This document shows positions 1 through 33,081 of a DNA stretch of 64,000 nucleotides, piece after piece. Positions within the stretch are counted from its first letter, which is position 1; each line of letters begins with the position of its first letter. Both the position numbers and the translations under genes were made by a program. The DNA lies in contig JBDROU010000046.1 in the NCBI GenBank assembly GCA_043809745.1, positions 1,733-65,732 of the forward strand, in the 5' to 3' direction. Origin of the DNA: a bacterium. Lineage in GTDB: Bacteria; Elusimicrobiota; JBDRMW01; JBDROU01. The notes beneath the pieces are model-generated. The model worked only from the letters and a program-made list of their open reading frames with translations. It had not been told where the DNA came from and did no database searches.

Positions 1-677
1 GAATAGGCTGCAGGAGAACAGCTGCATTTTATGGCTTTTTTATGCATTCCATTTGTCAGTTCAAGCACATCTATTCCAATTGCGATTTGAGGTTCTCTGC
101 CTTTCTCAAAGATTAAGCCTATTGGTTTCATGTTTTTTCCTTCAGAAATAACAAAAAAACCACCACCGACACGCTGACCCACATAGAGCATCGGTGCTTC
201 ATCACGTTCACCCTCACCATTTACTATCTCCGCTAAAAGCCATGTTAGCGCATTATAATATAACTCATACCAGTGCGCGGCTTCTCCATCAGCTTGTTCC
301 TTTGTAAACTTGTTTCCTGTATCATTAACCCACTTATAAAGGTGACAGGCAACAATACCGTGCACATGGATCAATTCTGGTATTCTTGATGCGATTGGCC
401 TGTTGTCTTCGTTCTCCGTAGTAATTCGTGGCACTGCAATCTCTTCGACTGATTTTATGCTCAAAAATAAGTCATCTTCTGGAATAAATCCTGCTCCATA
501 CTTTCTTTCTTCGTAAAAGAAATTATTGTTTACTCCCTTTAAACCATCTGCAATTCCTTCATTAGAACTTTGCGATATTGGCGGAGCAAGAAATATATTT
601 CCGCCAAAAACTCTAGTCGACAAATCCCCGCATAATAACCCAACAATACAAAGTAAACAAAAAATCCTTTTGCGCAT
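1..677 (-). CDS. Hypothetical secreted protein. Start codon is in the window; the 3' end is truncated by the window edge
   Basis: Minus-strand reading frame runs from ATG (revcomp at 675-677) to the window edge. Strong SD 'AAGGAGGG' lies 6 nt upstream. N-terminus 'MRKRIFCLLCIVGLLCG' is a signal peptide followed by 'GNIFLAPPISQ'. No recognisable catalytic family. The ORF track missed it because it is open at the edge. Confidence 0.6.
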   Translation of the reverse strand, partial: MRKRIFCLLCIVGLLCGDLSTRVFGGNIFLAPPISQSSNEGIADGLKGVNNNFFYEERKYGAGFIPEDDLFLSIKSVEEIAVPRITTENEDNRPIASRIPELIHVHGIVACHLYKWVNDTGNKFTKEQADGEAAHWYELYYNALTWLLAEIVNGEGERDEAPMLYVGQRVGGGFFVISEGKNMKPIGLIFEKGREPQIAIGIDVLELTNGMHKKAIKCSCSPAAY

Positions 678-974
678 AAAACCCTCCTTAAAATCATTCG
701 CTGAATGTGTCATATATTATATACAAAAAGCAAATTAATTTAATGTAAAATTCCTGTAAAATTTTTTAGATATCTAAAACGGTGGCCGCTCTAAAAGTAG
801 GGTATTTTCCCGTCGGAATTACGGACGTGAAATGGAATAGCCGGATAGGGACAGGTTCATTTTTTGGTTTTTTTTATTTTCAGGACAGAAGTTTTTTTTC
901 GACCACGGCCAGCCAATAGTTTAACAGATATAGACTTGACCAGTTAAAACATTCTCTAAAAATTAAGCGCTTTA

Positions 975-1406
975 TTACTCATAAATTGCATCTAAATTTA
1001 TTAAAAATATATTTATTTCCTTACCACCCTTTGAGCTGACACTCTGCCATTCTAGAATTATTCTATCTATATCGCCCGATTTTGAATTGCTTTTTTTCTC
1101 AAGTCCAAAATCCGAAAAAATATTCCTTAATTCCGTCGTGCTATACTGAGGAAATTCGCTCGCGTATTTTTGACTGTAAATCTTTTTTCTGCCTGAGTGA
1201 ATTCCATCACTATTAATTCCCCCATTTGGAATCAATTCAATTCTATCTGAATTAGCACTAAATGAATTCTTTACAGTATTATTGCCGGATGGTGGCGCAA
1301 GAAAAAAATAAAAGCTGGCAAAGCAGTACATGGAGAAATTAGAAAATGATATCAAAGCACTTATCAACAAAATAATCTCGAAGTATTTCATATTTTTATC
1401 ATACAT
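975..1406 (-). CDS. Small secreted hypothetical protein (143 aa, or 138 aa from the internal ATG at 1391)
   Basis: ORF carries a hydrophobic signal peptide 'MKYFEIILLISALISFSNFSMYCFA' followed by 'SFYFFLAPPSGNN'. A weak AGGGAA lies before the ATG at 1406. No family recognised. Confidence 0.45.
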   Translation of the reverse strand: MYDKNMKYFEIILLISALISFSNFSMYCFASFYFFLAPPSGNNTVKNSFSANSDRIELIPNGGINSDGIHSGRKKIYSQKYASEFPQYSTTELRNIFSDFGLEKKSNSKSGDIDRIILEWQSVSSKGGKEINIFLINLDAIYE

Positions 1407-1546
1407 ATGTTCCCTGATTGTATTGAAGACTTGTAATGAGTAAAATCAAAATATCGGTTCATTTAGAAATTCCAAATATCTGAAATAAGCTTATTAACTT
1501 CCTAAAAATATATCGGGCAAAGAAATAGATTTACAATGTAGTCTAT

Positions 1547-4468
1547 CTACAGAGATTGCTCAAAAAGGCGGCTACCGGAGCGAAAATTTGGGTTTTGAGG
1601 CGAAGCCAAGTTTTGCTCGGGAATAAATGGAGGAAGCACCCCATATTCGGCAAGTACCCGCAATACCTCGGCAATGCTCCAGGCCTGAGATCTCGTTCCG
1701 CCCGGCCGATGTGGAGCATTTCCATCAAAAACCTCAGGTAGCGATGATGCGTAAAAAGTCATTAAAAATTCTATAAGTGGTGTCATTTCTGTTTGAATGC
1801 TTTTTGTAATATTTCGGCGATCGACACTTTGATTAATTTGCACTTTAGCAAATGCATCAATATACGCACCCATTAGCCATGGCCATACCGTACCCTGATG
1901 GTAAGCTTTGTCTTTTATTTCAGGTCTTCGTTTAATATCATATTTCCCTTTATAATGTGAATCCCGGGGAGACAATGTTCGCAATCCATATGGCGTAAGC
2001 AAATCCTTTTGCACACATTCAAGCACTTTCTTTTGCCGTTCAGGACTCAGTAAGCTTCCTCCATGGCTTACTGCGAATATCATATTAGGACGTATCGCCC
2101 CTGAATGTTTGTCACGGTTATTTTTAACCGGTACAAAATCATACAGCGCCTGTTCATTCTCATTCCAGAATTTCTTATTAAAGGAATCTTTCACCTTCAA
2201 TGCAAGTATTTCATACTCCTCTACTTGTTTCTTATCACCTATAGTATCCTCAAGAAATGCAAGAAGCTTAAGATTGGCAAACCAGAGAGCATTAATTTCG
2301 ACACATTTTCCGTCGCGCGGAGTTACAGGATTATCATCCCCCCGGGGATCGGCATCCATCCATGTAGCCTGCGGGGGGCTTACGATGAGTCCGTCTTCAT
2401 CCATATAAATTCGCTGCTGTACACCATAACGCTCATATGCCGTACCCAGTTTGTAATGTCTCATAATATTTCTCATTGCATCAAAGAGTGTCTTGCCTTC
2501 ATCAATTTCTACGGTTAAAAAAGTTGTATCTCCGGGATTATACTCCATATATTTTTTTACCGCTTGAATGAACCAGAGGGAGCCATCAACCGTATTATAT
2601 TCATTCCTCTCCGGATGAGCAGGATCCGGTATTCTGTTAGGGATAATGCCGTTTTGCTCATACCGGGCGAAACGGTATATAATATCCTTTGCAACTTTAA
2701 AACGACTGGTTGCAAGCAGTATTCCCGGAAGTGATATAAATACATCCCTCCCCCACTCTTCAAAAAACCAATCCCAGCTTGCGGCCCACAGCTCCGGACT
2801 GCCATCAGTTTTATAGTTTACAAAAGTATCCGCAGCGTCAAGTAGAGTCTGACTGATAGCATCAGACGCCTGCCAGACATCTCCCTCATCAATAGCTTTT
2901 TGAGCAGCTAGGTAATTAGTAGCATCATACCGGACTCTGTTATGATAATCAGCATCTCTCTCCAAAGGAACTCTCCATTGCCAGTAGGATTTTCCGTCTT
3001 TTACATCTTTTACATTAAAGGGATCCCCCCACTGATCACCCAAGGTAAAGCTGATAAAGCGAGCGCTTTCCCCCGGGAACTTCTGCGAGTGCACATCACG
3101 AAATCTCTTCTTAAAGGCAACCACCGGGTGCTTAGCACCATTGTAGAAGCGGGGATCATCATGGTAACTCAGATGCTTCCAGTCACCCCCAACCGTTAAA
3201 AAACCTTGCTTCTGAACGATGCCAGATTTATTTTCATACGCTTCCGCAAGCGGTAACGCCCCATATTCTTCGGCAAGTGCCGCTAATGCAGCTACGAAAT
3301 CGTCACCTGGCTCATCGCCCGGTTTATCCCCCACATAACGTTTTCCGAAAAACGAGTACGCAAAATGCATCGCATCACACCGCATCCCGTCAAATCCCAT
3401 CGCCAGCCAGTACCGTACCTGATTCAAAATAAATGCATAATTATCTTTTTTGAGCTCTTTCCAGTTCCAACTCGCTAAATCCTGCCAAACCTCTACAATA
3501 TCGTCCCGCTCAATTCCCGGATGGCTATCACCATCAGCACCATTCAGAAAGTTTTGAGGATTCTTCCATACATCAACGCTGTGTTTGCACCGAAAGAAAG
3601 GCAAATCAAATAATACGTGACCTCTTAACTGTTTCGTTTCTTTCAGAGCAGATTGCAGCTGCTGAGAGGCAACCCACTGCTTATACTTGTACATCCAGCA
3701 CAATTCATCAAATGAAGAATCGCGTTTCGCCTGCGCTATTATTCCCTCAGTCCACTTATTTGCAGGTATAAAGGTATGATCTTTCAGGTTGACTAAACTA
3801 TCAATCGCCTTGAACTCAGCATATTCCTCAATCCAGAATTTGTTCTCTTCAACGTATGTCATAAACTCTGTATAGCGAGCATTATCCGTATAAAAAACAT
3901 TTTTAAATCTTTTGGATGCTAGTTTTGCAATTATGCCTTCTCTTGTCTCAATTTCACGGTAGTGAACTGATTGCTGTTCAGCATTTTGAGCGAAGAGTAA
4001 TTCCCTTAATGCATTATTTTCAAGTAATAGCTGCTTGACCTCGGGTATCTCAGACCAGTCAATATATAATTCATTTAAGGCATACATACTAATAGGAGCG
4101 TAAGGGCTTTCGTCAGATATGGCAAAATGTGGCAGCAGTAAAATAGTGTCTACACCCTGCGGTAAAAGCACCTCTCTATAATAACGCGGAAAATCCGTAA
4201 ATTTACCAATACCGGGATCATTACCCTCTTTGCGAAGCGAGTAGAGCGGCAGACTTACCGCAAGGTGATTTTTTGAGGGATCCTGCCACCAACGCTGATT
4301 ATTAACGGATGAGCTGGGAACTGACTGCATAAAAATATGTGCGCTATGCTTTAATACGGTATCACGCGCTCCCGCAGGCGCAAGCAAATTTCCCGCAGAA
4401 ATCCCGAGAGGATTAATAAGGCAAAGAAGAATAAGCAGTAAAAATGGTGTTTTAATTCTATTAAGCAT
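1547..4468 (-). CDS. Secreted bifunctional alpha-glucan debranching-type enzyme: N-terminal GH77 4-alpha-glucanotransferase (amylomaltase) domain fused to a C-terminal GH133/GDE_C amylo-alpha-1,6-glucosidase-like domain
   Basis: 973 aa with signal peptide 'MLNRIKTPFLLLILLCLINPLGISA'. GH77 hallmarks: 'LLLPHFAISDESPYAPISMYALNELYID' (the SPY...ALN.LYID amylomaltase motif), 'HVLFDLPFFRCKHSVDVWKNP' (cf. GDLPIYVA.DSADVW) and 'MRCDAMHF'. C-terminal ~400 aa 'WFFEEWGRDVFISLPGILLATSRFKVAKDIIYRFARYEQNGIIPN...NTVDGSLWFIQAV' matches the GDE_C (glycogen debranching enzyme C-terminal, GH133) pattern. Confidence 0.8.
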   Translation of the reverse strand: MLNRIKTPFLLLILLCLINPLGISAGNLLAPAGARDTVLKHSAHIFMQSVPSSSVNNQRWWQDPSKNHLAVSLPLYSLRKEGNDPGIGKFTDFPRYYREVLLPQGVDTILLLPHFAISDESPYAPISMYALNELYIDWSEIPEVKQLLLENNALRELLFAQNAEQQSVHYREIETREGIIAKLASKRFKNVFYTDNARYTEFMTYVEENKFWIEEYAEFKAIDSLVNLKDHTFIPANKWTEGIIAQAKRDSSFDELCWMYKYKQWVASQQLQSALKETKQLRGHVLFDLPFFRCKHSVDVWKNPQNFLNGADGDSHPGIERDDIVEVWQDLASWNWKELKKDNYAFILNQVRYWLAMGFDGMRCDAMHFAYSFFGKRYVGDKPGDEPGDDFVAALAALAEEYGALPLAEAYENKSGIVQKQGFLTVGGDWKHLSYHDDPRFYNGAKHPVVAFKKRFRDVHSQKFPGESARFISFTLGDQWGDPFNVKDVKDGKSYWQWRVPLERDADYHNRVRYDATNYLAAQKAIDEGDVWQASDAISQTLLDAADTFVNYKTDGSPELWAASWDWFFEEWGRDVFISLPGILLATSRFKVAKDIIYRFARYEQNGIIPNRIPDPAHPERNEYNTVDGSLWFIQAVKKYMEYNPGDTTFLTVEIDEGKTLFDAMRNIMRHYKLGTAYERYGVQQRIYMDEDGLIVSPPQATWMDADPRGDDNPVTPRDGKCVEINALWFANLKLLAFLEDTIGDKKQVEEYEILALKVKDSFNKKFWNENEQALYDFVPVKNNRDKHSGAIRPNMIFAVSHGGSLLSPERQKKVLECVQKDLLTPYGLRTLSPRDSHYKGKYDIKRRPEIKDKAYHQGTVWPWLMGAYIDAFAKVQINQSVDRRNITKSIQTEMTPLIEFLMTFYASSLPEVFDGNAPHRPGGTRSQAWSIAEVLRVLAEYGVLPPFIPEQNLASPQNPNFRSGSRLFEQSL

Positions 4469-4513
4469 AATTATAAAAAGTCTTCTAAATCTAAATCAGA
4501 ATATATATAAATA

Positions 4514-4540
4514 ATTATAGTTTTTTTATATTAAATGCAA
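4514..4540 (-). promoter_or_regulatory. Candidate sigma70-type promoter for the minus-strand GH77/GH133 gene (TTGCAT-N15-TATAAT)
   Basis: On the minus strand TTGCAT (revcomp of 4535-4540) and TATAAT (revcomp of 4514-4519) lie ~45 nt upstream of the ATG at 4468. The region is AT-rich, so chance matches are likely. Confidence 0.3.
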
Positions 4541-4654
4541 GTAAAATAATTGTAAATTTTTTCAAATATTTTAATCCGGAGATTGCTCATCGGACTACTG
4601 CTTTTTGAGAGAACTCTAATCAGAGATTTTGACATAATGTGCCTTAAAAAACAT

Positions 4655-4684
4655 TTGACTTATGATAGAATATTTTGTATAAAT
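4655..4684 (+). promoter_or_regulatory. Candidate sigma70 promoter of the T2SS operon: TTGACT-N17-TATAAAT
   Basis: TTGACT at 4655-4660, exact 17-nt spacer, TATAAA(T) at 4678-4684. It sits ~80 nt upstream of the first operon gene in the divergent intergenic region. Confidence 0.45.
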
Positions 4685-4690
4685 ATAGCC

Positions 4691-4710
4691 AGCTCTCTAC
4701 TCAGAGAGCT
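4691..4710. promoter_or_regulatory. Perfect 8-bp-arm palindrome AGCTCTCT-actc-AGAGAGCT just downstream of the -10 element; candidate operator or 5'-leader hairpin
   Basis: Seen directly in sequence. It lies between the predicted promoter and the small MerR-like HTH gene. Confidence 0.3.
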
Positions 4711-4764
4711 AATCTAAAATTAATTAATATATTTTATAGATAATTTGCACTTGCAGGAGGTAAA

Positions 4765-4983
4765 TTGAAGCAGTATTTTCTTGTAAAAGATCTGGCCAGA
4801 ACCACTGGGAACTCGGTTTATACCATTAAATATTATTACAAGCTCGGTCTTCTTAATGAGATAGGCCGGACTCCGCATACCAATTTCAAGATATTTGATT
4901 CCAAAGCAGTTTCCCAATTAAAAAAAATACGAGCTTTAAGGAAAAAAGGAAGATCACTGCAAGTGATCAAAAAACTATTATGA
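4765..4983 (+). CDS. Small MerR-family HTH protein (HTH only, 72 aa), first gene of the T2SS operon
   Basis: TTG start 5 nt after AGGAGG. 'LVKDLARTTGNSVYTIKYYYKLGLL' is a MerR/excisionase-type helix-turn-helix. Its stop overlaps the next gene as ATGA (4980), suggesting translational coupling. Confidence 0.55.
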   Translation: MKQYFLVKDLARTTGNSVYTIKYYYKLGLLNEIGRTPHTNFKIFDSKAVSQLKKIRALRKKGRSLQVIKKLL

Positions 4984-5807
4984 GCTATTTCAAAGCCTTG
5001 GGCCTGGAAAAAGAGCCGTTTTCAACAAGCCCGGACCCTGAATTTTTTTATAAATCCAAAGATCACCAATCAGCGCTTTCGCGCCTGGAGATTGCAATCA
5101 GGCTTAAACGCGGACTCAATTTAATACTTGGTGACGTAGGCACCGGTAAAACCACGCTGGGCAGGATACTCGTACAGCGTTTTAACAAGGAAGGTAATTT
5201 CATTTTTCATTTAATGCTTGATCCCGGGCACAAATCAGAATATTTATTCCTTCAAAATGTCTGCAAAATGTTTGGCATTAAAGGAAACTTAAGATCGAGC
5301 ATAGATTTTCAGGATGCCATAAAGGATTATCTGTTCGAAAAAGGAGTCAAGGAAAAGAAAACAATAGTACTGCTTATAGATGAGGGCCAGAAACTTTCAC
5401 TCCCCCTTCTCGAGATACTGCGCATATTTCTTAATTATGAAACCAATGAGTACAAACTTCTGCAATTGGTTATATTGGCCCAGCTTGAGATAATCCCAAA
5501 AGTAGAAAGGGTGAAGAATTTTAATGACAGAATAAATCTTAAATACAGCATAAATCCGTTCGATGAATCAGAAACTGCAGAGATGATATATTATAGGCTT
5601 AAAAAAGCAGGTTATAAAGGAAACTCACCATTATTTGAAAAAGATGCTGTACAATCAATCTATAATCACACCAAAGGCTATCCCAGACAGATTTCATTGC
5701 TCTGCCACAACTGCCTTGAATATCTGGTAATGCACGATAAATCATCCGTATCAAAGGATTTGGTAAAAATATTAATCGATGAGGATAGAAAAATTAATGG
5801 CAAATAA
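4980..5807 (+). CDS. gspA: Type II secretion ATPase-like protein ExeA/GspA (AAA_22 family)
   Basis: Walker A 'GDVGTGKTTL' and Walker B 'VLLIDEGQ'. The N-terminus 'FGL..EPF....DP.FFY.S..H..AL..L' is typical of ExeA/GspA. Position at the head of a gsp operon supports the call. Confidence 0.7.
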   Translation: MSYFKALGLEKEPFSTSPDPEFFYKSKDHQSALSRLEIAIRLKRGLNLILGDVGTGKTTLGRILVQRFNKEGNFIFHLMLDPGHKSEYLFLQNVCKMFGIKGNLRSSIDFQDAIKDYLFEKGVKEKKTIVLLIDEGQKLSLPLLEILRIFLNYETNEYKLLQLVILAQLEIIPKVERVKNFNDRINLKYSINPFDESETAEMIYYRLKKAGYKGNSPLFEKDAVQSIYNHTKGYPRQISLLCHNCLEYLVMHDKSSVSKDLVKILIDEDRKINGK

Positions 5808-6465
5808 ACCTTCCCCTGAAGAGAAGCTGCTTAATTTAATAAGAGGCAAAAATAGCAAAAAGGTCATATTTTCACATATTGGATCAATATCCATATCATT
5901 ATTAAATACATTAAAATCCAAATTTGCTCCTGTATTAAACAAAATTAAAAGTGCGAGCAATAGATTTTCATTAAAACTAAAAAACCGATTATTATTTTAT
6001 GTTAACCGGCTGCTTACAGCGATTGTATGCATACTACTCATTATAATGGCTCTAAACATATTCTCTACACCTCAAAATATAAGACTTCTTAAAAACATAG
6101 AGAATGAAGAAAGCGTCAAATCAGCAAAAAACACAGTTCAAACTGTTGAATCAAAACCTTTTCCTTATTACTTAAGCAGAATCAGCGGCAGGAAACTATT
6201 CAAGATATACAAAGCAAAACCTGAAATAAAAAAAATCGAGAAAAAAGAAAACCCGGTCCTGCTTGAGCTTACAAATGGTTTATTTTTAAGCGGTATAATC
6301 TCTGACGGCAGCAGATTACAGGCAGTTATAACAGATCAAAAACGGAACCAGACATATTTTCTTTATGACGGAGATTATATAGGTGAAATAAAAATTGAAA
6401 ATATTCTACAAAATGAAGTAGTTGTCAGCTATAGAGGCGAGACCACATCCATTAATATGCGCTAA
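5779..6465 (+). CDS. gspC: GspC/PilP-like inner-membrane protein: single TM plus a C-terminal HR (secretin-interacting) domain, no PDZ
   Basis: TM segment 'LLTAIVCILLIIMALNIF'. C-terminus 'LFLSGIISDGSRLQAVITDQ...YFLYDGDYIGEIKIENILQNEVVVSYRGETTSINM' fits the GspC HR / PilP beta-sandwich pattern. It lies immediately upstream of the secretin gene, as gspC normally does. Confidence 0.5.
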   Translation: MRIEKLMANKPSPEEKLLNLIRGKNSKKVIFSHIGSISISLLNTLKSKFAPVLNKIKSASNRFSLKLKNRLLFYVNRLLTAIVCILLIIMALNIFSTPQNIRLLKNIENEESVKSAKNTVQTVESKPFPYYLSRISGRKLFKIYKAKPEIKKIEKKENPVLLELTNGLFLSGIISDGSRLQAVITDQKRNQTYFLYDGDYIGEIKIENILQNEVVVSYRGETTSINMR

Positions 6466-6476
6466 GGAGGCAGAAT

Positions 6477-7916
6477 ATGTTGCGTTTAATTATTGCAGTA
6501 ATATTTATGTTGAGTATAGCTCCGGTTGATTATTCTTTTGCAACGGAAGAATTTCCCCCTTTACCTGAGCTGTTGTCGAATGAGGATGGGCCGGGTGAAG
6601 AAATTATACAAGAACCTCAAATATCACCTCCACCTCCTGCCGCAGTTTCGGAAAGTTATCGTAGCAAAATCGAAGCTCCAGACAGCCTGTCAAACAGGAA
6701 AATCTCGCTTGAGCTGCGCAGTATGGATATCATTAATGTTTTTAAAATACTTTCCGATAAAAGCGGCCTGAAAATAATAGCAGGCAAAAATGTTAGAGGT
6801 ACGGTTAGTTTGTTTCTAAAAGACGTAGATGTATTCAAGGCATTAACAATGATACTTGAAACTAACGAACTGGCCTATGAGCTCGATGACAGCATAATAA
6901 AAGTAACCACAGCGATGGAATACGAGAAAGCATACGGTAGAAAGTTCAATGACAAAAGGGACATACAGGTGGTAAAGCTTAATCACGCAAAAGCCGCTGA
7001 TTTATTAGCATTATTAAACAAATTAAAAACAAACGTCGGCGAAATAATACATGATGAAAGAATGAACAGTTTAGTGATAGTAGACCTGCCGGAAGCGATA
7101 GAAGAAATCATGAAAGTCATCAAAATGATCGATCACCCTGATAAACAGGTCTTGATAGAAGCCAAGATCGTTCAAATACTGCTTAATGATGATTTTAAGA
7201 TGGGTGTCGATTGGCAGTATGTATTCAGCGAGATAAACGAACGCAAAGTTGAAGGCGGCGTCAAAGGCAACTTTAATATACTTGCCAACAGCGCTCTCGG
7301 GGCGCAATTCGATATAGGAACAATTGAAATAGACAATTATGCAGCTATGCTTAAAGTCCTGGAAACAGTAGGAGAAACCAACCTCGTTTCCACACCTAGA
7401 ATAACTACCATCAACAATACTGAAGCAAGAATATTGGTAGGCACAAAAGAAGCTTATGTAACCTCTGAAACTACATCAACCGGCAGCGGGGTAGTTACCA
7501 CAGCAGAATCCGTCACATTTGTAGACGTAGGTGTTAAGCTCTTCGTAACCCCTACGATAGGTGAAGATAATTTTATAAAAATGAAGATCAGGCCGGAAGT
7601 AAGCTCGGTTGACAGGGAAATGACCACGGGGCAGGGCAACAGCATACCGATAGTGCGCACATCCGAAACCGAAACTACTGTATTAGTAAAAGACGGCGTT
7701 AGTATAGTTATCGCAGGATTGATTGAGGACAGAAAATTAGACACGCAAAGTCAGATCCCGATATTAGGGCATATACCTATATTAGGATATTTATTCAGAA
7801 GTACAAGCAAAGTAAAAGCAAAAACTGATCTCGTGGTTTTTTTAACCCCTCACATAGTAAATGGGAATATAAAATCAGAAGAATTTGACAAATATTTCCC
7901 TAAAGATAAAGAATAA
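6477..7916 (+). CDS. gspD: Secretin (type II secretion system protein D / PilQ-like), short form
   Basis: RBS GGAGG and a signal peptide. Secretin_N-like domain 'ISLELRSMDIINVFKILSDKSGLKIIAGKNVRGTVSLFLKDVDVFKALTMILE' and a canonical secretin C-domain ending '...DLVVFLTPHIV'. Confidence 0.85.
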   Translation: MLRLIIAVIFMLSIAPVDYSFATEEFPPLPELLSNEDGPGEEIIQEPQISPPPPAAVSESYRSKIEAPDSLSNRKISLELRSMDIINVFKILSDKSGLKIIAGKNVRGTVSLFLKDVDVFKALTMILETNELAYELDDSIIKVTTAMEYEKAYGRKFNDKRDIQVVKLNHAKAADLLALLNKLKTNVGEIIHDERMNSLVIVDLPEAIEEIMKVIKMIDHPDKQVLIEAKIVQILLNDDFKMGVDWQYVFSEINERKVEGGVKGNFNILANSALGAQFDIGTIEIDNYAAMLKVLETVGETNLVSTPRITTINNTEARILVGTKEAYVTSETTSTGSGVVTTAESVTFVDVGVKLFVTPTIGEDNFIKMKIRPEVSSVDREMTTGQGNSIPIVRTSETETTVLVKDGVSIVIAGLIEDRKLDTQSQIPILGHIPILGYLFRSTSKVKAKTDLVVFLTPHIVNGNIKSEEFDKYFPKDKE

Positions 7917-7936
7917 TTAAACGACTGGAGAAAACA

Positions 7937-9652: not shown

Positions 9653-10860
9653 CAACATTTTATTATAAAGCTAAAACAAAATCACATGAGCTTGTTGAAG
9701 GTTTCATTGAAGCCGCCAGCAGGCGACTGGCTATTTTAGATTTGGATTCAAAAGGGTTAATCCCCTTTAGTCTTACGGAAGAAGTTGTTAAGGATAACAA
9801 TTCAGGAATTAAAATAAGTCTATTTCGGCGAATCTCATCCCAGGAGATCACAATATTTACCCGTCAATTATCAGATTTATTATACGGCGGGGTACCAATT
9901 GTAAAAGCATTGATAATTCTTAATAACCAGTTAAGCAATAAAAAGTTTAAGAATATAACTGAAGAGATCGTGAAAAGCGTACAGGAAGGCGAAAGTTTTT
10001 CAAACAGCTTAAAGCATTATCCTGAATTATTTTCAGGATTTTTTATAAGCCTGGTGAAATCAGGCGAGATGAGCGGCAGATTAAATGAGATATTGGCCAG
10101 AATAGCAGATTTCAGGGAGAAGGAAGAGGAAGTAAAATTAAAGCTTAGCTCAGCTTTGACATACCCGGTTTTAATTTTACTTGTAGGCACATTAAGCATC
10201 GTATTCCTTCTGTCGGTAGTTATACCCAGAATAGTATCAATGTTTAACGAGATGGGACAGCTGCTGCCGCTGCCGACCCAAATATTGGTTGCAGTAAGCC
10301 GCTTATTCACTAATTACTGGTGGGCTGTAATACTTCTTATCGTATTTACAGCGCTGTCTATGCACAGAATACTGAAAACTGAAAAAGGAAAAACAGCAAT
10401 AAGCAGCTTCATACTGCATATACCCTTTTGGGGAAATCTTATAAAAAAAATTGAGATAACACGTTTTTCGGGTACTCTGGCCATGCTTCTCGAAAGCGGG
10501 GTTCCTGTGCTTTCTTCCGTACACCTTGTTAAGGGCGTACTAACAAATGAAACAATCAGGCGTGAATCAGACAGAATTTACAATTCAATAATACAGGGGT
10601 CATCGCTTTCAAAGAGCTTAAAAGAAAGCACAGTTTTCCCCGCTTCAGTGGTGGATATGATAGCGGTAGGCGAGGAAAGCAATATACTCGGCAGCACATT
10701 GGCAAAGATCGCAGCTTCTTGCGAAAAGGAATCCGACAGAACAATCAAAAAAGGTTTAACTATGCTCGAACCCGTAACCATACTCGTTATGGGATTGGTA
10801 ATCGGATTTATTGTAGTAGCTATGCTGCTGCCGATATTTCAGATGAATGTTATGAGGTAA
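9649..10860 (+). CDS. gspF: Type II secretion inner-membrane platform protein GspF
   Basis: 403 aa with two T2SSF repeats and three TM segments. Start overlaps the gspE stop. Confidence 0.9.
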   Translation: MTTFYYKAKTKSHELVEGFIEAASRRLAILDLDSKGLIPFSLTEEVVKDNNSGIKISLFRRISSQEITIFTRQLSDLLYGGVPIVKALIILNNQLSNKKFKNITEEIVKSVQEGESFSNSLKHYPELFSGFFISLVKSGEMSGRLNEILARIADFREKEEEVKLKLSSALTYPVLILLVGTLSIVFLLSVVIPRIVSMFNEMGQLLPLPTQILVAVSRLFTNYWWAVILLIVFTALSMHRILKTEKGKTAISSFILHIPFWGNLIKKIEITRFSGTLAMLLESGVPVLSSVHLVKGVLTNETIRRESDRIYNSIIQGSSLSKSLKESTVFPASVVDMIAVGEESNILGSTLAKIAASCEKESDRTIKKGLTMLEPVTILVMGLVIGFIVVAMLLPIFQMNVMR

Positions 10861-10895
10861 GTAAATATTTAGAGCTAATAATAGGAGGCTTCAAA

Positions 10896-11333
10896 ATGAA
10901 AAGAATTAAAACAAACAAAGGCTTTACCCTTATAGAATTAATGCTTGTTGTTGTTATACTCGGAATATTAGTTACTATGGTTATACCCAGATTGGTCGGC
11001 AGAAGCAAGGAAGCCCGGATATCAGCAGCTAAAGCAGATATCGAAGCCAACATAGCCATAGCCCTGGATTTGTATGAACTTGATAACGGGAACTACCCCT
11101 CAACAGAACAGGGATTGGAAGCACTCAGAATAAAACCTGAATCCCCTCCGCTTCCAAAAAAATGGAAAGGCCCTTATATAAAAAAGAAAGTCCCTGTAGA
11201 TCCATGGGGCAACAAGTATGTATACCAATGCCCGGGCTCGCATAATAAGGAAGATTATGATCTTTACTCACTGGGGGCTGACGGCGTAGAAGGCGGCGGG
11301 GATGATATCTCTAATTGGGAGCAGGAAGAATAA
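10896..11333 (+). CDS. gspG: Major pseudopilin GspG
   Basis: RBS AGGAGG before the ATG at 10896. Prepilin leader 'MKRIKTNKG|FTLIELMLVVVILGIL' (Gly-1, Glu+5). C-terminus 'DPWGNKYVYQCPGSHNKEDYDLYSLGADGVEGGGDDISNWE' is the GspG signature. The track ORF 10719..11333 is an in-frame N-terminal over-extension into gspF. Confidence 0.9.
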   Translation: MKRIKTNKGFTLIELMLVVVILGILVTMVIPRLVGRSKEARISAAKADIEANIAIALDLYELDNGNYPSTEQGLEALRIKPESPPLPKKWKGPYIKKKVPVDPWGNKYVYQCPGSHNKEDYDLYSLGADGVEGGGDDISNWEQEE

Positions 11334-11334
11334 T

Positions 11335-11811
11335 ATGCGGTTCAGAATTAAAGGTTTTACATTAATTGAGCTTATTATAGTCATATTAATACTCGCTGTA
11401 ATGAGCTCAATATCTATACCGCTGTTTAAGAGCTGGTACGGCTCAGCAAGTACCGAAGATACAGCATCAAGAATAACAGCACTGCTTAATTATGCCCATC
11501 AAAAAGCATTATTAGAGCGCAAATCAATAAGGTTCAATATAGATACAGCCAGCAGGAATTACTGGCTTACATATAAAGATAAATCTACCGGCAAATTCAG
11601 CAAAGAAAAAGGAAAACACAGCCGCGTTTTCTCATACTCAGATAAATTAACCGTTATTAGTAAAAACAGTTATTACGATTTCACAAAATACGGTGATCAT
11701 GATCTAATTAATATTAAAGTGTCCATTAACCAAAATAATGGTTTCGAGATACTTAGCAACGGCCGTTTCGAAACTGTTAAAGCCTTGCCGTTACAAGAAG
11801 AATCTGTATGA
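11335..11811 (+). CDS. gspH: Minor pseudopilin, GspH-like
   Basis: Prepilin N-terminus 'MRFRIKG|FTLIELIIVILILAV'. About 158 aa, placed after gspG. Confidence 0.6.
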   Translation: MRFRIKGFTLIELIIVILILAVMSSISIPLFKSWYGSASTEDTASRITALLNYAHQKALLERKSIRFNIDTASRNYWLTYKDKSTGKFSKEKGKHSRVFSYSDKLTVISKNSYYDFTKYGDHDLINIKVSINQNNGFEILSNGRFETVKALPLQEESV

Positions 11812-12182
11812 TGAAAAGCAAAGAAAAAGGGTTTTCGCTAATAGAAGTACTGGTTACACTGGTAGTTCTCTCTGTGGGTTTGGTTTATATAATTGGGTCT
11901 TTAAGGACATCTATTTACTCGGTTAAAGTATCAAAAGATTATTACGCTTCTTATCTTTTGCTCGAAAATAAAATGTGGGAGCTTAATGCTGAAGGCTCTT
12001 TTAGCATAGGAACAGAAGAATATTCATGCGATGAGGAAGATCCAATTGACTGTTCTTACAAGGCTGAAATTACCGAACCAAACGGCGAAATACTCAGTCA
12101 TCTGGTGCTTAAGCTAATTGATAAGCAAGAAAAAGAAATTTCCAGCTTAGAAACACTGGTAATCCTAAATGAGGATTTATGA
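11808..12182 (+). CDS. gspI: Minor pseudopilin, GspI-like
   Basis: 'MMKSKEKG|FSLIEVLVTLVV'. 124 aa, typical GspI size. ATGA overlap with gspH. Confidence 0.6.
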   Translation: MMKSKEKGFSLIEVLVTLVVLSVGLVYIIGSLRTSIYSVKVSKDYYASYLLLENKMWELNAEGSFSIGTEEYSCDEEDPIDCSYKAEITEPNGEILSHLVLKLIDKQEKEISSLETLVILNEDL

Positions 12183-12787
12183 TCTTAAATCAAATTGAAT
12201 CAGAAAATACTCAAAAGGCCTTTACTCTTATTGAGCTTCTCATTGCTTTATCCATATTTTCAATTGCGGCTGTGACAATTATTTCAGTATTTCAGAAGGG
12301 CCTGCTTGCCTGGAAGAAAGGCAGCAGTATAATAAGCTTAAACCAAAAAACAAGGGCTTTCTCAGAATTATTTTCAAGGGAATTAAGAAATATTAGGACT
12401 TTCTCCCCCATTAAGTTTTCCGGCGAAACAAGCAGCATCTCTTTCCCCAACCTTTCAACTGATAAAACTAAAGGTTGCTTCAACAAAACTACCTATTACT
12501 TTGATTCTATGAACAAAACAATAGTAAGGAACACAAAGAGTTTAAGTGATATATATCTAAATAATACGGGATCGGATGAACCTATGTTGACAGATGTTGA
12601 GGAATTTAAGTTGGAATACGCATATTCAAGCGCAGATCAAGGCCTTTCATGGAAAGAACTTTGGGACGCGGAAGACTCCGTCCCCAAAGGCCTTAAGATA
12701 CACTTAAAACTCCTGGATAATGAAAACAAAGAAGAAGTTTTCTCAAGATTTATATATATACCTGCAGGATATTCGCCACAAGGATGA
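12179..12787 (+). CDS. gspJ: Minor pseudopilin, GspJ-like
   Basis: '...TQKA|FTLIELLIALSIFSIAAV'. 202 aa. ATGA overlap with the previous gene. Confidence 0.55.
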   Translation: MILNQIESENTQKAFTLIELLIALSIFSIAAVTIISVFQKGLLAWKKGSSIISLNQKTRAFSELFSRELRNIRTFSPIKFSGETSSISFPNLSTDKTKGCFNKTTYYFDSMNKTIVRNTKSLSDIYLNNTGSDEPMLTDVEEFKLEYAYSSADQGLSWKELWDAEDSVPKGLKIHLKLLDNENKEEVFSRFIYIPAGYSPQG

Positions 12788-12790
12788 GAA

Positions 12791-13762
12791 ATGAATGCAA
12801 AAAATAAGGGATCAATATTAATATTAACACTCTGGATAATGGCAATTCTGTCTCTGCTGGCTATTAATATTGCAGGCAGTATGAGCTATGAACTGTATAT
12901 TACAGGAAGATTTATAGATTCAATAAAATCTTTTCAAATCCTCCAGGCAGGCATCAGAAAAGCAGCATTGCTAACTAGAATTGATGATGATACCGCAGAC
13001 AGCCTGAAGGATATATGGAGCAACAACCCTAAAGAATTTAAAAAAATACAGGTTGGGGAAGGTTATTTAACAATATCCAGGAAAAATAGCGGCGAAACAG
13101 AAGACATAGTTTACGGTTTGATTGATGAATCTAGAAAATTAAATATTAATACAGCATCTAAGGAAATTCTCAAGTCCGTAGATGGTCTGGAAGAGATTCA
13201 TGTTCATTCAATTATTGACTGGCGCGATGAGGATGATTTGTCGCTCCCAATGGGAGCTGAGAACTCTTACTATGAATCGTTACCCAATCCGTATAAGTGC
13301 AAGAATTCGCCCTTTGAAAGCCTGGATGAACTTCTTCTGGTAAGAGGATTTTCTCCTGAACTACTATCAAAAGTAAAAGACAAATTAACGGTTTTCAGTA
13401 GCGGACAGATCAATATAAACACCTGCACATTCGAAACATTGAAATCTATCGGGCTGGATGATAACACCATCCAGATAGTAATAGACTACAGGAATGGCAA
13501 TGACGCCGAAGAAGGCACCGAAGACGACAGGATATTCACTAATCCAAAATTAATACTGAGCGAACTCTTAACCGAGTATCAGCTCAGCGAAGGCGAATCT
13601 GCGCAGATTACGGGTATAATTGATAAAAATATATTATGCGCTAACACTGAATATTTTCAAATGAACATCGAAGTGGAGTTAAACAAAGAAATAACCAATA
13701 ACGCATATATAATATTTAACAGGAAAAACGGCGAGATAGTATATTGGGACGAGGAATATTAA
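12791..13762 (+). CDS. gspK: Minor pseudopilin GspK-like (no Glu+5)
   Basis: 'MNAKNKGSILILTLWIMAILSLLAI' lacks the Glu+5 residue, as is characteristic of GspK. 323 aa with helix-hairpin-helix-like repeats 'LDELLLVRGFSPELLSKV'. Confidence 0.6.
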   Translation: MNAKNKGSILILTLWIMAILSLLAINIAGSMSYELYITGRFIDSIKSFQILQAGIRKAALLTRIDDDTADSLKDIWSNNPKEFKKIQVGEGYLTISRKNSGETEDIVYGLIDESRKLNINTASKEILKSVDGLEEIHVHSIIDWRDEDDLSLPMGAENSYYESLPNPYKCKNSPFESLDELLLVRGFSPELLSKVKDKLTVFSSGQININTCTFETLKSIGLDDNTIQIVIDYRNGNDAEEGTEDDRIFTNPKLILSELLTEYQLSEGESAQITGIIDKNILCANTEYFQMNIEVELNKEITNNAYIIFNRKNGEIVYWDEEY

Positions 13763-15205
13763 ATGTTTCTAGGCAAATTTATTAAACCAAAAGGCACCAT
13801 AATTTCTAACATAATAGAATTCGAAGAGCACAGCATCCGACTTATTCAGTATTCCGAATCCAATGGAAAGAAGAATATACTGGGGATTTTTGAAGAGAAG
13901 GTTGATCCGGAATTAAATGAAGATTTATCAGTTAAGGTTTCTAAGCTTATAAGCAGAGCCGATTCCAAAGTGCAAGATGCCGGAATAATTATACCCAGGA
14001 GCCTAATTGCTGTTAAATATTTTACTTTCCCTTCTATCGATCCCGAAGAATTAATGGAGATGGTAAACCTTCAGCTTATTAAGGATATGCCAATCTCACA
14101 AAATGATATAAAAAGCGATTATACTGTAATATCACAAAATGGTTCAAATTCATTTGTTGAAGTATTCGCCGTGCAAAGATCGGTAACAGATCAATTTTGC
14201 AGTATATTAAAAGAAAACGACGTGCAGCCTAAATTCTGCACTGTAAGTTCATACGCGCTTTTTAGTCTAATAAAGCATTTTTATACAGAAAAGCTGGAAG
14301 ACAAAAAAATAATTGGATTAATTTATAAAAGCGTTCATAACATTGATTTTTTAATATTCAACAGCCGCGAACTGTTATTCAGCCGCAGTTTCTCATACGA
14401 AAACCAGTTAATGAACACAGATGTAACGCTCAAATTTATAAGCGACTCAATTGCATATTTCAAGAAAAAGATCACTAATAATAATTTTGATAAAATATTC
14501 ATTCTCAACGAATTAAATAAAGACGATGAGATGCATAACTCAATAAGGTTTCAATTGAACATACCAATAGATGAGCTTAACATAAAGGAACTCGCTTCAC
14601 ATTTCGTACAAACCGGGAATAAAGTCTTAGAGTTTGACGCTAAAACAGCAAAATTTGCAGGTTTGCTATTAACCGAAGATATTCATCTTGATTTCCTTAA
14701 AAGAGAGAGCCGCGCAAGGAAGGTATCGCTTTCAGTAAAAAAAGAAATTATCAAATTCATTGTATTATGCAGTTCTTCCTTAATACTCATACTGCTTATC
14801 ATCTTCTCCTGGTTCTGGAAGCAGAATCGATATCTAAATGCTCTTGAGAGCAAAATTAATTTGACTCAGCCGCTCTCTGACAGATTAAATTCCATGCGGT
14901 CAAAATCATCTATAATAAATAAATACTTAAACAGAAATAACTCAAGCATAGAGGTCCTGGCAGAAATATTTCACATGATTCCTAAAAGCGTAAATCTTTC
15001 AGGTTTTATGTACAACAGCGAAAACGAGCTTACTCTGCAGGGGACTTCTGCTAATATGTCAGATGTATTTAAGCTTGTATCTATCCTGGAAAAATCGAAA
15101 CAATTTGAAAAGGTGGAACTGAGATACGCAAGCAAAAGAGAGTTAACTGCAAAAACAATAACAGATTTTCAGATATTCTGTCATTTTGTGCCAAATGAGA
15201 GTTGA
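13763..15205 (+). CDS. gspL: GspL-like bitopic assembly protein (cytoplasmic actin-like domain, TM, periplasmic domain)
   Basis: 480 aa with a single TM 'IIKFIVLCSSSLILILLIIFSWFW' near residue 330. The gene-order position is that of gspL. Confidence 0.5.
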   Translation: MFLGKFIKPKGTIISNIIEFEEHSIRLIQYSESNGKKNILGIFEEKVDPELNEDLSVKVSKLISRADSKVQDAGIIIPRSLIAVKYFTFPSIDPEELMEMVNLQLIKDMPISQNDIKSDYTVISQNGSNSFVEVFAVQRSVTDQFCSILKENDVQPKFCTVSSYALFSLIKHFYTEKLEDKKIIGLIYKSVHNIDFLIFNSRELLFSRSFSYENQLMNTDVTLKFISDSIAYFKKKITNNNFDKIFILNELNKDDEMHNSIRFQLNIPIDELNIKELASHFVQTGNKVLEFDAKTAKFAGLLLTEDIHLDFLKRESRARKVSLSVKKEIIKFIVLCSSSLILILLIIFSWFWKQNRYLNALESKINLTQPLSDRLNSMRSKSSIINKYLNRNNSSIEVLAEIFHMIPKSVNLSGFMYNSENELTLQGTSANMSDVFKLVSILEKSKQFEKVELRYASKRELTAKTITDFQIFCHFVPNES

Positions 15206-15741
15206 ATATGATTATTAAACACCTATCAAAAAGAGAAAGAATATTGTTCTATATAACTTTGTTATTTATAGTTGGCGTGCTGTTTAACTTTTTAATTATT
15301 TCCCCTTTAGCAAACCTTAAAGAGAAGCTTTCTTTTGAAATTATCAGAAAAGAAATTGCTTTAAAGAAGAATATGTCAGTTATTAGCAAAAAAAAAGAAA
15401 TTCAAGAAAATTACAATATTCTTTCTAATTTCATAAAGAAGCAAGGCTCAGATGAAGAAGAATCGGCAAACTTGCTCAAAGAAATTGAAACTCTGGCCAG
15501 CAAATCAAAAATTTCACTTATTAATATAAAACCCAAGCCGCCAAAAGAAATGGAATTCTACAAAATATATTCAGTGGAAATAGAAGGCGAGGGTTACCTT
15601 GAACAGCTCGTAAGATTCATTTACAATCTTGAGCAATCAAAGCAATTACTCAAGGCCGAAAAGTTAAACATTTCCGTAAAGAGCAGCTCCTCCTCCACAC
15701 TCAAATTCTCCCTCCTAGTGGGGACGTTGTTTACAGATTGA
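15202..15741 (+). CDS. gspM: GspM/PilO-like protein
   Basis: 179 aa with N-terminal TM 'ILFYITLLFIVGVLFNFLIISPL' and a coiled-coil. Last gene of the operon; start overlaps the gspL stop. Confidence 0.45.
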   Translation: MNMIIKHLSKRERILFYITLLFIVGVLFNFLIISPLANLKEKLSFEIIRKEIALKKNMSVISKKKEIQENYNILSNFIKKQGSDEEESANLLKEIETLASKSKISLINIKPKPPKEMEFYKIYSVEIEGEGYLEQLVRFIYNLEQSKQLLKAEKLNISVKSSSSSTLKFSLLVGTLFTD

Positions 15742-15875
15742 CAGTTGAATAAACTAGTGGCACCCCCCACATCTATTTAATTTTTTTACAACTGAAGAAT
15801 AGGAACAAATATGGAAGTTGCTTTAATCTACTATTCTTCAATCTTTTAAACTGTCAATCTGTCATCAACGTCCCC
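15720..15875. repeat. Long-range imperfect inverted repeat with a nested hairpin at the 3' end of the T2SS operon. Outer 27-nt arms GGGGACGTTGTTTACAGATTGACAGTT / AACTGTCAATCTGTCATCAACGTCCCC; inner TGAAGAATAG / CTATTCTTCA
   Basis: Arms at 15720-15746 and 15849-15875 (25 of 27 complementary). Inner arms at 15793-15802 and 15831-15840. The left arm overlaps the gspM stop. Confidence 0.5.
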
Positions 15876-15937
15876 AAAATATTTTACAATAACTTTACAG
15901 CGAATTTTACATACTTGTGGTATACTTAATTAGGCCT

Positions 15938-17029
15938 ATGAATAGATTTATACGTCTAATTATTACTATATTTCTTTTATTCCAGATACCAGTTCAATCT
16001 TGGAGCAGGACTATGCTTGCTCCCCCGCATTCAATGGAACTAATTCGCAAAAAACAAGTGCAATCCTATCAAAATGCAGTACGGGATTTTATCCGGAAGC
16101 AATCGCAAATTTATGCCTGTGCAGCTGCAAAGAATATTTACCAGCTAAAAATATTAAATTTGCCAAACACTACAGCTAGATTATCAAATATACAAACAAA
16201 TATTCGTTCTCTTACACCAGAAAAACTTCTAGCTAAATTTATGGATTATGCTCAAGAAAAAGGCGGAGGAAATTACAAATCTTTGGACCCCAAAAATTTT
16301 GATCCTGGAGATTTTCAGGACTTTATAGGAAATAAATTTATGGTTCTTGATAATATTTTTGAACTGCTTAAGCTACATATTGAAAATAATGACCAGGATA
16401 AGATTGAAGATAAATTTTCTAAAATATGCAATTATTATGAGCTAATTTCAATTGTCTTAGCCAATATTTTAGGCATAGAGGAATTTTCCACCATCTTCCA
16501 ATCGGCAGAATGGCTGGAAGAAATTCAATGGTACAAGGCCATTTTAAGCAAAACAACCAACCAAACATCTGAGGTTAAAGATTATTTAAAAGAACTTCAA
16601 AGTAAATTCACAGCTGCAGATGAGGAAATACTCGGAATGGATAATGAACAATTAGAAGAGGAATTTAAAAGAATTAACGAAGGTTATAATGTGCCAGATT
16701 ACTCTCATAAATTGTCTTATGAATTTGATTACCAAGAATTTTACGATTTCTGCTCGAATATAGGAGTAGGTACTGTTATAATGATCTTTAGTGGGTTTTA
16801 CGATAAGCTTTTACGTGGAGAACAAATAAATTTAATTTACTTTAACAAAATAACTCTAAATCTGCCTGAATATTACAGAAAAGGCATGATTCTTTTGTGC
16901 TGTTTCATTGGTAAAGATTTAGTTTACCCAAACAAGGGGGTCGTTGGTGGGATAATTAAACTTCCCCAACCTACAAAACCAGCTATTGAACAAATTGATA
17001 ATCCCTCATACTATGAAAACTCTTTATAG
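15938..17029 (+). CDS. Hypothetical secreted alpha-helical protein (candidate T2SS substrate)
   Basis: Signal peptide 'MNRFIRLIITIFLLFQIPVQSWS' then 'RTMLAPPHSMEL'. No family recognised. The track ORF begins at GTG 15917; the ATG at 15938 gives a canonical n-region. Confidence 0.5.
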   Translation: MNRFIRLIITIFLLFQIPVQSWSRTMLAPPHSMELIRKKQVQSYQNAVRDFIRKQSQIYACAAAKNIYQLKILNLPNTTARLSNIQTNIRSLTPEKLLAKFMDYAQEKGGGNYKSLDPKNFDPGDFQDFIGNKFMVLDNIFELLKLHIENNDQDKIEDKFSKICNYYELISIVLANILGIEEFSTIFQSAEWLEEIQWYKAILSKTTNQTSEVKDYLKELQSKFTAADEEILGMDNEQLEEEFKRINEGYNVPDYSHKLSYEFDYQEFYDFCSNIGVGTVIMIFSGFYDKLLRGEQINLIYFNKITLNLPEYYRKGMILLCCFIGKDLVYPNKGVVGGIIKLPQPTKPAIEQIDNPSYYENSL

Positions 17030-19919: not shown

Positions 19920-19964
19920 TTTTACTTATGTTATTTTGGAAGGTTTTTGAGCGATCTCTTTTAC

Positions 19965-23932: not shown

Positions 23933-23934
23933 AA

Positions 23935-25284: not shown

Positions 25285-25290
25285 TTAATA

Positions 25291-26376: not shown

Positions 26377-26423
26377 AATAAACCTCTTGTCAAACTATAT
26401 ATTATTTTCGGCCTAAATAATTA

Positions 26424-29299: not shown

Positions 29300-29315
29300 G
29301 CCTTTAATAAGTTCT

Positions 29316-31040: not shown

Positions 31041-31067
31041 ATTTTCCTCGTCCCCATCTTAAATTAA

Positions 31068-31385
31068 TTATAATTTAGAAATATATTTTTTAGTTTTTAT
31101 TGTTGAATACCTAATTAAAATGACCTCATCTTTGGTGGGGAATCTTAAACCTAATTTCTGTCTAGCAATGGTATCAAGTCTCTCCAGAGAGGTAAATTCG
31201 TTGTATTTCATGCTAAGGACATCGTTCTCCAATTTATATTTAAAATATATTTCATTTTTTTGCTGCAGCTGGTATCCAAGCTTTATCACGTAAATATTTT
31301 CATATACATAGGCAAATAAAGATACCATTAAAAATATAAGTAAAACAAAATATAATCTGTAGTTGGCAGTATTTTTTTTTGCCAT
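31068..31385 (-). CDS. ftsL: Cell division protein FtsL
   Basis: 'MAKKNTANYRLYFVLLIFLMVSLFAYVY' (short cytoplasmic tail plus TM) followed by a coiled-coil. Located between rsmH and ftsI. The track ORF starting at TTG 31508 adds a junk 41-aa extension that reads through a GC hairpin. Confidence 0.6.
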   Translation of the reverse strand: MAKKNTANYRLYFVLLIFLMVSLFAYVYENIYVIKLGYQLQQKNEIYFKYKLENDVLSMKYNEFTSLERLDTIARQKLGLRFPTKDEVILIRYSTIKTKKYISKL

Positions 31386-31467
31386 AATTCTTTTTATGAA
31401 CAATAACTTAATAAAGTAAAAAACTATTAATATATGCGGTGGAATAAAGGTAGATGTGCAAATCGTA

Positions 31468-31503: not shown

Positions 31504-31511
31504 ATCAAATC

Positions 31512-32465: not shown

Positions 32466-32472
32466 AAAAGGA

Positions 32473-33080: not shown

Positions 33081-33081
33081 A

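Follow-up and report, generated by a model that had tools for sequence, protein, structure and literature searches.

How a type II secretion system (T2SS) selects its cargo is a long-standing open question, and to our knowledge no linear signal is known. The stretch of DNA analysed here, 64,000 nucleotides of contig JBDROU010000046.1 (the window), holds a T2SS (gsp) operon and, beside it, genes for four predicted exported proteins with a short common motif, a hydrophobic residue followed by L-A-P-[P/A], just behind their putative signal peptides. The closest precedent for this motif is, by analogy, the N-terminal export signal of TcpF (V. cholerae) and CofJ (enterotoxigenic Escherichia coli, ETEC), which is bound by the minor pilin at the tip of the type IVb pilus (T4bP), TcpB or CofB (PMC10120004). 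The first-pass annotation of this DNA had stated that no sequence-level T2SS signal is established, which is right for the classical T2SS and overlooks this N-terminal signal of the sister T4bP machine. In both cases the segment is short and lies at the mature N-terminus of a Sec-exported protein (predicted to be so here), being disordered in TcpF and CofJ and unstructured in the model of one carrier, and in both it includes a key hydrophobic or aromatic residue. The T4bP is a type IV filament machine homologous to the T2SS, in which GspK and the minor pseudopilins form the equivalent tip complex. The machine here, however, is a T2SS (GspC/D/E/F/G/K) rather than a T4bP, and each pilus serves one exoprotein without a common consensus, whereas here four unrelated proteins carry a single one. 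Binding, necessity and sufficiency have moreover been proven experimentally for the pilus signals, while the motif described here is known from sequence alone.

In Bacteroidetes, the lipoprotein export signal (LES) is a short consensus directly after the cleavage site that decides post-Sec sorting, that is, surface exposure (PMC5080379). The LES follows the lipidated +1 Cys of signal peptidase II (SPII) lipoproteins and is rich in acidic residues, whereas the motif in the window is hydrophobic and Pro-rich, with no lipobox Cys. In curli formation (type VIII secretion), the roughly 22 N-terminal mature residues of CsgA (N22) direct the Sec-exported protein to an outer-membrane channel; this segment differs in being Gly/Asn-rich, in serving one substrate family and in leading to the CsgG channel rather than to a secretin with a pseudopilus. 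In the Klebsiella pul system, a large starch/glycogen-debranching enzyme, PulA, is encoded beside the T2SS operon responsible for its export. As a GH13 lipoprotein with secretion determinants other than a short consensus peptide, PulA differs from the GH77+GH133 fusion of the window, which has no lipobox; PulA is listed among T2SS cargo in one source (PMC12802150). A linear tag with a dedicated partner on a subset of T2SS cargo is described for GlyGly-CTERM and rhombosortase (VesB of V. cholerae; PMC12889589). That tag sits at the C-terminus, has three parts (a motif, a transmembrane helix and a basic tail) and is cleaved by an enzyme of the rhomboid family, whereas the motif in the window is N-terminal and no rhomboid-family enzyme is encoded nearby.

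A scan of the whole window in six reading frames for [FLMIV]LAP[PA] returned exactly four matches, all inside real open reading frames (ORFs) and all at the sites reported in the first-pass annotation. The carrier genes are:

1..677, minus strand, running off the window edge: ORF1, a predicted exported, divergent GlpX-like (class II fructose-bisphosphatase-like, FBPase-like) protein, with its ATG at 677 after AAGGAGG
975..1406, minus strand: 143-residue ORF, likely start Met6 at nt 1391
1547..4468, minus strand: 973-residue fusion of glycoside hydrolase (GH) families GH77 (4-alpha-glucanotransferase) and GH133/GDE_C (amylo-1,6-glucosidase), MFH1282891.1, assigned by Pfam and NCBIfam
15938..17029, plus strand: 363-residue orphan protein (370 residues when read from the GTG at 15917), encoded last, behind gspM

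Within them, the four motif copies are:

579-593, minus strand: F-L-A-P-P in the context IFLAPP, ORF1 residues 29-33, codons TTT CTT GCT CCG CCA
1290-1304, minus strand: F-L-A-P-P in the context FFLAPP, 143-residue ORF, codons TTT CTT GCG CCA CCA
4373-4387, minus strand: L-L-A-P-A, GH77/GH133 enzyme residues 28-32, codons TTG CTT GCG CCT GCG
16013-16027, plus strand: M-L-A-P-P, residues 26-30 of the 363/370-residue ORF, codons ATG CTT GCT CCC CCG

The carriers are mutually unrelated, comprising the GH77+GH133 enzyme, the GlpX-like protein and two proteins without an informative match. A small residue (S/G/A) stands two positions after the motif in all four copies, which extends the consensus to hydrophobic-L-A-P-[P/A]-x-[small]. 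The motif Ala is encoded by GCT or GCG and the first Pro by CCG, CCA, CCT and CCC across the copies, and it is this variation in the Ala and Pro codons which places the conservation mainly on the peptide rather than on the DNA. An anti-Shine-Dalgarno or DNA-repeat origin was rejected, there being no CCTCC, with the Ala and Pro codons differing and similarity stopping at the motif. The four coding sites are also the only places where the degenerate DNA pattern CTTGCNCCNSC occurs. The Leu codon is nevertheless CTT in 4/4 copies; CTT makes up 23% of the Leu codons of the window, and the probability of any common Leu codon is about 0.01. This could hint at common ancestry, and would suit the explanation that the motif has no function and is either a relic of a short 5' gene segment of common origin or a chance occurrence made visible by post-hoc definition. 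Against such descent, a comparison of the four sites found no nucleotide or peptide similarity outside the motif itself.

The chance form of this explanation can be weighed against the 58 proteins (19,768 amino acids) of the window, in which LAP[PA] is expected 0.39 times and observed four times, with AP[PA] and APP confined to the four motif sites. Because the motif was defined post hoc, a discovery-corrected test was run over the window's 12 signal-peptide N-termini, scoring at least three proteins with a common exact 4-mer and a fourth within one mismatch. Composition shuffles gave a corrected P of 0.004; when sets of 12 real signal-peptide-like N-termini were instead drawn at random from related loci, it was only 0.057, which, with n = 4, favours an absence of function. 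The matches behind this empirical null, when checked per locus, were hydrophobic words of the h-region (e.g. LFLL, IAIT) and not Pro-containing polar words, and the confinement of AP[PA] to the four sites and the sparse background in related loci (below) also speak against a functionless motif. The motif is real, non-random at roughly the 10^-3 level and not astronomically so, and we regard an absence of function as improbable.

The operon beside which the carriers are encoded occupies 4980..15741 on the plus strand, assigned through Pfam, and consists of:

4980-5807, plus strand: ExeA-like ATPase
5779-6465, plus strand: GspC-like protein (weak Pfam T2SSC match, under the Pfam cut-off)
6477-7916, plus strand: GspD secretin (Pfam Secretin)
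7937-9652, plus strand: GspE (Pfam T2SSE)
9649-10860, plus strand: GspF (Pfam T2SSF)
10896-11333, plus strand: GspG (Pfam T2SSG)
11335-12787, plus strand: three further, minor pseudopilins (Pfam N_methyl on all three)
12791-13762, plus strand: GspK (Pfam T2SSK_1st)
13763-15205, plus strand: GspL of the PilM/N type (Pfam PilN)
15202-15741, plus strand: PilO/GspM (Pfam PilO/T2SSM)

A Pfam T2SSJ match also lies within the operon. Its predicted products include the secretin GspD, the ATPase GspE, the platform proteins GspF/L/M/C, the major pseudopilin GspG and minor pseudopilins including GspK, by which it is a T2SS; no prepilin peptidase was found in the window. The GH enzyme, the 143-residue ORF and ORF1 form one minus-strand unit divergent from the plus-strand gsp operon, and the 363-residue gene follows gspM, giving two transcription units of carriers that flank or extend the complete operon. 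A promoter and terminator scan gave promoter-like counts at chance level and was of no help in defining transcription units. The gene order is itself a point of difference from related loci of the Omnitrophota type, being ExeA-C-D-E-F-G...L-M here and E-F-G...L-M-ExeA-C-D in those checked (e.g. L004, L011), such that A-C-D has moved to the front as a block and gspM is followed by an additional orphan gene.

Only the four non-machinery exported proteins with genes beside the gsp operon carry the motif. The first-pass annotation had attributed it to every exported protein around the operon, and this holds for all four that are not part of the machinery but not for GspD, which is exported and lacks it. 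Its further statement that the secreted proteins of the 35.8-43 kb locus and CapA lack the motif proved correct, as eight other signal-peptide proteins of the window are free of it: GspD, the CapA-like protein, a PorV-like barrel, a protein with a type IX secretion system (T9SS) C-terminal domain (CTD), three more proteins of the 35.8-43 kb locus, and LptA. Counted by position, 4/5 of the signal-peptide proteins in the first 17 kb carry the motif as opposed to 0/7 elsewhere in the window (Fisher p = 0.01), the number of independent units being about two rather than four because three of the four carrier genes lie in one operon.

The position of the motif within the carriers depends on where their signal peptides end. 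Cleavage sites were assigned by eye on the translations with the -3/-1 rule and are rule-of-thumb calls, a signal peptide being recognised by a basic n-region, an uncharged hydrophobic h-region of 7-15 residues, a c-region with -3 and -1 occupied by small residues, and a residue other than Pro at +1; a cleavage-site matrix trained by expectation-maximisation (EM) on 745 signal-peptide-like N-termini collapsed onto the hydrophobic core and was discarded. The predicted signal peptides are:

603..677, minus strand: ORF1, residues 1-25, MRKR / IFCLLCIVGLLCG / ...VFG, cut before G
1317..1391, minus strand: 143-residue protein, MKYFE / IILLISALISF / ...CFA, cut before S
4394..4468, minus strand: GH enzyme, residues 1-25, MLNRIKTP / FLLLILLCLI / NPLGISA, cut before G
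15938..16006, plus strand: 363-residue protein, MNRFIR / LIITIFLLF / QIPVQSWS, cut before R (outside the GenBank gene model)

By these criteria all four carriers have Sec signal peptides of the signal peptidase I type, the n-region of the 143-residue protein having a net charge of 0, and their h-regions of 9-13 residues fit cleavable signal peptides rather than membrane anchors. The motif stands 26-35 residues from the ORF start in 4/4 carriers, directly after a short uncharged hydrophobic stretch with basic residues ahead of it. The first-pass annotation had placed it 3-9 residues after the cleavage site, in agreement with the sites assigned here, by which LAP begins at +4 (in two carriers), +5 and +6 of the predicted mature chains and the five-residue motif at +3 to +5. 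Cleavage is thus predicted upstream of the motif, and the translations support its placement in the early mature region, outside the hydrophobic core of the signal peptide.

A near-fixed distance from the start, with the motif Leu at residues 27-31 in all four carriers, and from the h-region would also be expected of a feature at the level of Sec or of the signal peptidase, without connection to the T2SS. In the first form, an early-mature hydrophobic patch ended by a Pro-Pro helix breaker would tune SecA/SecYEG engagement; in the second, the motif would be part of a c-region or pro-junction of unusual length, serving signal peptidase I or another peptidase. The [P/A]-x-[S/G/A] at the end of the motif resembles a -3/-1 site in all four carriers, a weak pattern which in the GH enzyme becomes a perfect A-G-A before R; a LepB gene lies in the window at 44515-45273 (NCBIfam), and a relaxed form, FLISPP, occurs inside the signal peptide of the PorV-like protein. 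The eight other Sec substrates of the window, however, do without the motif, no such bias is seen in 324 related signal-peptide-like proteins, and canonical cleavage sites precede the motif in all four carriers. Pro at -3/-4 and charged residues in a c-region of 17-18 residues are, in addition, atypical for signal peptidase I. A Sec- or peptidase-level feature is therefore rather unlikely in our estimation.

The same tight spacing bears on a programmed translational pause, in which an EF-P-dependent stall on A-P-P at codons 30-33, at the point where the growing chain is just long enough to fill the exit tunnel of the ribosome, would aid co-translational targeting. APP is a reported stalling motif that depends on EF-P (PMC4176338), and three of the four sites are APP, a word found nowhere else in the window proteins. 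Such a pause is very improbable, given that the GH copy reads APA and not XPP, that the other exported proteins of the window have no such site, and that the conserved hydrophobic-Leu before and the small residue after the motif would be left unexplained.

Several established sorting signals were considered and rejected. A lipoprotein (SPII) signal requires a lipobox, taken as [LVI][ASTVI][GAS]C, in which the +1 Cys is invariant, and LAP[PA] has no Cys, nor does a lipobox precede the motif in any carrier; a normal one, LISC, occurs elsewhere in the window in the ORF at 59246-59818. A prepilin (class III) signal, for which G|F-T-L-I-E should stand ahead of the hydrophobic stretch, was rejected on the Pfam N_methyl matches, which fall on GspG and the three minor pseudopilins and on none of the four carriers. 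The carriers do not have the NCBIfam C-terminal sorting domains of T9SS cargo (TIGR04183 / TIGR04131), the C-terminus of ORF1 lying beyond the window. Readings as a double-glycine leader, a rhomboid site, a twin-arginine (Tat) signal or a TonB box, when judged by eye, suit no more than one or two of the four sequences.

The carriers differ in how far their families can be traced. ORF1 matches Pfam FBPase_glpX (E=3e-7) and PDB entry 1ni9 (E=1e-5), with the GEGExDEAPMLYxG motif present, and its GlpX-like region is preceded by ~85-95 additional N-terminal residues; a full-database protein search found no close homologue. The 143-residue protein, checked against Pfam, NCBIfam, PDB and the fetched T2SS loci only, showed no Pfam or NCBIfam family, nothing meaningful in PDB and no tblastn match in 160 T2SS loci. 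For the 363/370-residue protein, no homologue was found among 5.8 billion proteins or 1.84 billion cluster representatives, one extra match to its C-terminus (E 1e-9) being rejected as spurious with an inflated E-value, since it fell on a 1732-residue protein of near-identical 61-residue tandem repeats. Its single-sequence AlphaFold (AF2) model is all-alpha but poor, with a predicted local distance difference test (pLDDT) score of 47, and places the motif in coil. The GenBank model of this gene, MFH1282905.1, has 338 residues and starts at the Met of MLAPP, with GGAG 7 nt upstream; the 25 in-frame codons before it encode a textbook signal peptide, from which we infer the longer form. Either the start has been mis-called, or the protein is cytoplasmic and the number of motif carriers drops to three.

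The GH enzyme is the carrier with the fullest record. Its homologues, largely from Elusimicrobia, share ~48% identity with it; the full-length ones mostly start signal-peptide-like and continue into long Ala/Pro-rich linkers, which makes an extracytoplasmic location a trait of the family. In the AF2 model (41-sequence alignment, pLDDT 77, predicted template modelling score (pTM) 0.78), residues 1-57 lack secondary structure and score below pLDDT 50, and the fold begins near residue 60, so that in this model the motif at residues 28-32 lies in a flexible N-terminal extension. In one Elusimicrobia subclade, the segment NPLGISAGNLLAPAGA finds an aligned counterpart in TNLGSAASLNSASLAPAGG, with a similar NLAPAG, seen in this subclade only, ~35 residues after the signal peptide and with LAP varying to LTP or LSP. 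In the loci of GH homologues that were examined (two distinct, L001-L003), a T2SS is not adjacent. Many Elusimicrobia homologues have A-Q-V-[VIFY] exactly at the predicted cleavage site (…AAAQVV…; P0008, P0014-P0016, P0020-P0023, P0025, P0026, P0029, P0030, P0034, P0040, P0041, P0043 and P0044), which may reflect no more than conservation among orthologues, or else a Gln(+1)-type feature, and was not seen in the neighbouring exported proteins of L001 and L003. It may also be recorded that enzymes which are normally cytoplasmic, the GH77+GH133 fusion and the GlpX-like protein, have signal peptides at 1-4468 (minus strand), where they form one operon with a small orphan.

Some Elusimicrobia GH homologues are fused to or encoded beside S8 proteases (P0036, P0042, P0051; L003 935-7903), an observation that bears on post-export processing, by a dedicated protease that would remove a short pro-peptide, or on an anchoring site tethering the proteins to the cell surface or to one another, in neither of which the T2SS would be involved. 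The near-fixed position of the motif relative to start and h-region would suit such a site, as would the co-operonic arrangement of three carriers, which could act together, and the export signal of TcpF is itself clipped after secretion (PMC10120004). Genes for a protease, a sortase-like enzyme or a rhomboid are absent from the 17-kb region, the Cys, Ser/Thr or Gly used in known anchoring chemistries is missing from the motif, and no NCBIfam sorting-signal model matches any of the four carriers; processing or anchoring on these grounds is unlikely.

Whether the motif follows the T2SS in evolution can be judged from the relatives of the operon. Those of GspE are almost all Omnitrophota metagenome-assembled genomes (MAGs) with 49-63% identity, the best full-length identity being 61% among genome contigs and 60% among metagenome contigs. 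In a comparison set of 160 related Omnitrophota-type T2SS loci (2.08 Mb), the motif has six matches in ORFs of at least 80 residues, none of them after a signal peptide, so that the motif is private to this lineage rather than a conserved T2SS signal. Homologues of ORF1 and of the 143- and 363-residue proteins are absent from these 160 loci as well, and the GH enzyme matches only its own three fetched loci. The other T2SS loci showed no non-hydrophobic word common to at least three signal-peptide proteins of one locus. A phylum-wide bias towards AP[PA] or LAP after signal peptides was likewise rejected, there being no general enrichment in 324 Omnitrophota signal-peptide-like proteins (AP[PA] at 0.49 per 1000 residues after the h-region vs 0.35 elsewhere). 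As T4bP export signals are specific to their own machine, the absence of the motif from relatives would be expected and not damaging; it is consistent with such a signal without proving membership of that class.

Taken at the protein level, the motif is probably (at roughly 0.6) a functional tag for some shared post-Sec step. That it serves as a sorting or recognition tag had been suggested in the first-pass annotation, and of this suggestion the non-random, protein-level motif on unrelated cargo stands, while its connection to the T2SS is one of gene adjacency alone. The fuller version, in which the tag includes recognition by the T2SS, is possible but falls short of an even chance. The carriers would be exported by Sec and cut by signal peptidase I, exposing the N-terminal peptide, to which a component of the neighbouring T2SS would bind while the peptide is extended. 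The foremost candidate receptor, by analogy with the pilus systems, would be the pseudopilus tip complex of GspK and the minor pseudopilins, with GspC or the periplasmic N-domains of GspD as alternatives, and binding of the peptide would hand the folded cargo to the secretin.

A number of points weigh against this interpretation of the motif as a tag. Classical T2SS signals are thought to be conformational. The cleavage sites of the carriers rest on a rule of thumb, and the GH enzyme has an alternative site between AGA and R that would put the motif within a long c-region. The signal peptide of the 363-residue protein lies outside the GenBank model. The GH copy may, from the subclade alignment, predate the lineage and have been inherited from the family; the other three copies have no such inheritance history. 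In the T2SS neighbourhoods of 160 relatives no signal peptide is followed by the motif, which hence has no evolutionary conservation, the corrected probability against real signal-peptide N-termini is the 0.057 given above, and with n = 4 the adjacency statistic rests on about two independent units.

Of the remaining window, a T9SS-like cluster at 35846-43025 (minus strand), in an Omnitrophota-like genome, includes a 1047-residue GH2-like protein and two small exported proteins in addition to the first two of the following features:

35846-36844, minus strand: PorV/PorQ-family barrel, whose signal peptide holds FLISPP, the near-variant of the motif
36849-38138, minus strand: 429-residue protein with a T9SS type A/B C-terminal sorting domain (NCBIfam), the only CTD protein found
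33305-33760, minus strand: bacterial class A RNase P RNA (202.6 bits), 456 nt vs a model of 367 positions and hence with insertions
34970-35043, minus strand: tRNA-Val(CAC)

The stretches 17919-34917 and 43423-63951 (minus strand) resemble ordinary core genome as judged from N-terminal translations, only lepB having been confirmed by family search. Core-like genes include UvrB, a dcw cluster (mraZ-rsmH-ftsL-ftsI-murE-murF-mraY-murD-ftsW-murG) and lepA-lepB, with components of the phosphotransferase system (PTS), hprK, lptC-lptA-lptB and kdsA/kdsB besides.

Should the motif be a Sec-level or processing feature instead, it would be a minor, lineage-specific curiosity. That it is the first sequence-level T2SS export signal, a multi-cargo hydrophobic-LAP[P/A] tag read by the pseudopilus tip or by GspC/GspD, is doubtful at present; the new element would be one consensus common to several unrelated T2SS cargo proteins, and, if true, the one-cargo principle of T4bP export signals would be extended to a multi-cargo T2SS. 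A consensus tag on several cargo proteins beside a compact gsp operon would make for a directly testable system, a handle for secretome prediction in Omnitrophota-like uncultured bacteria and possibly a portable secretion tag.

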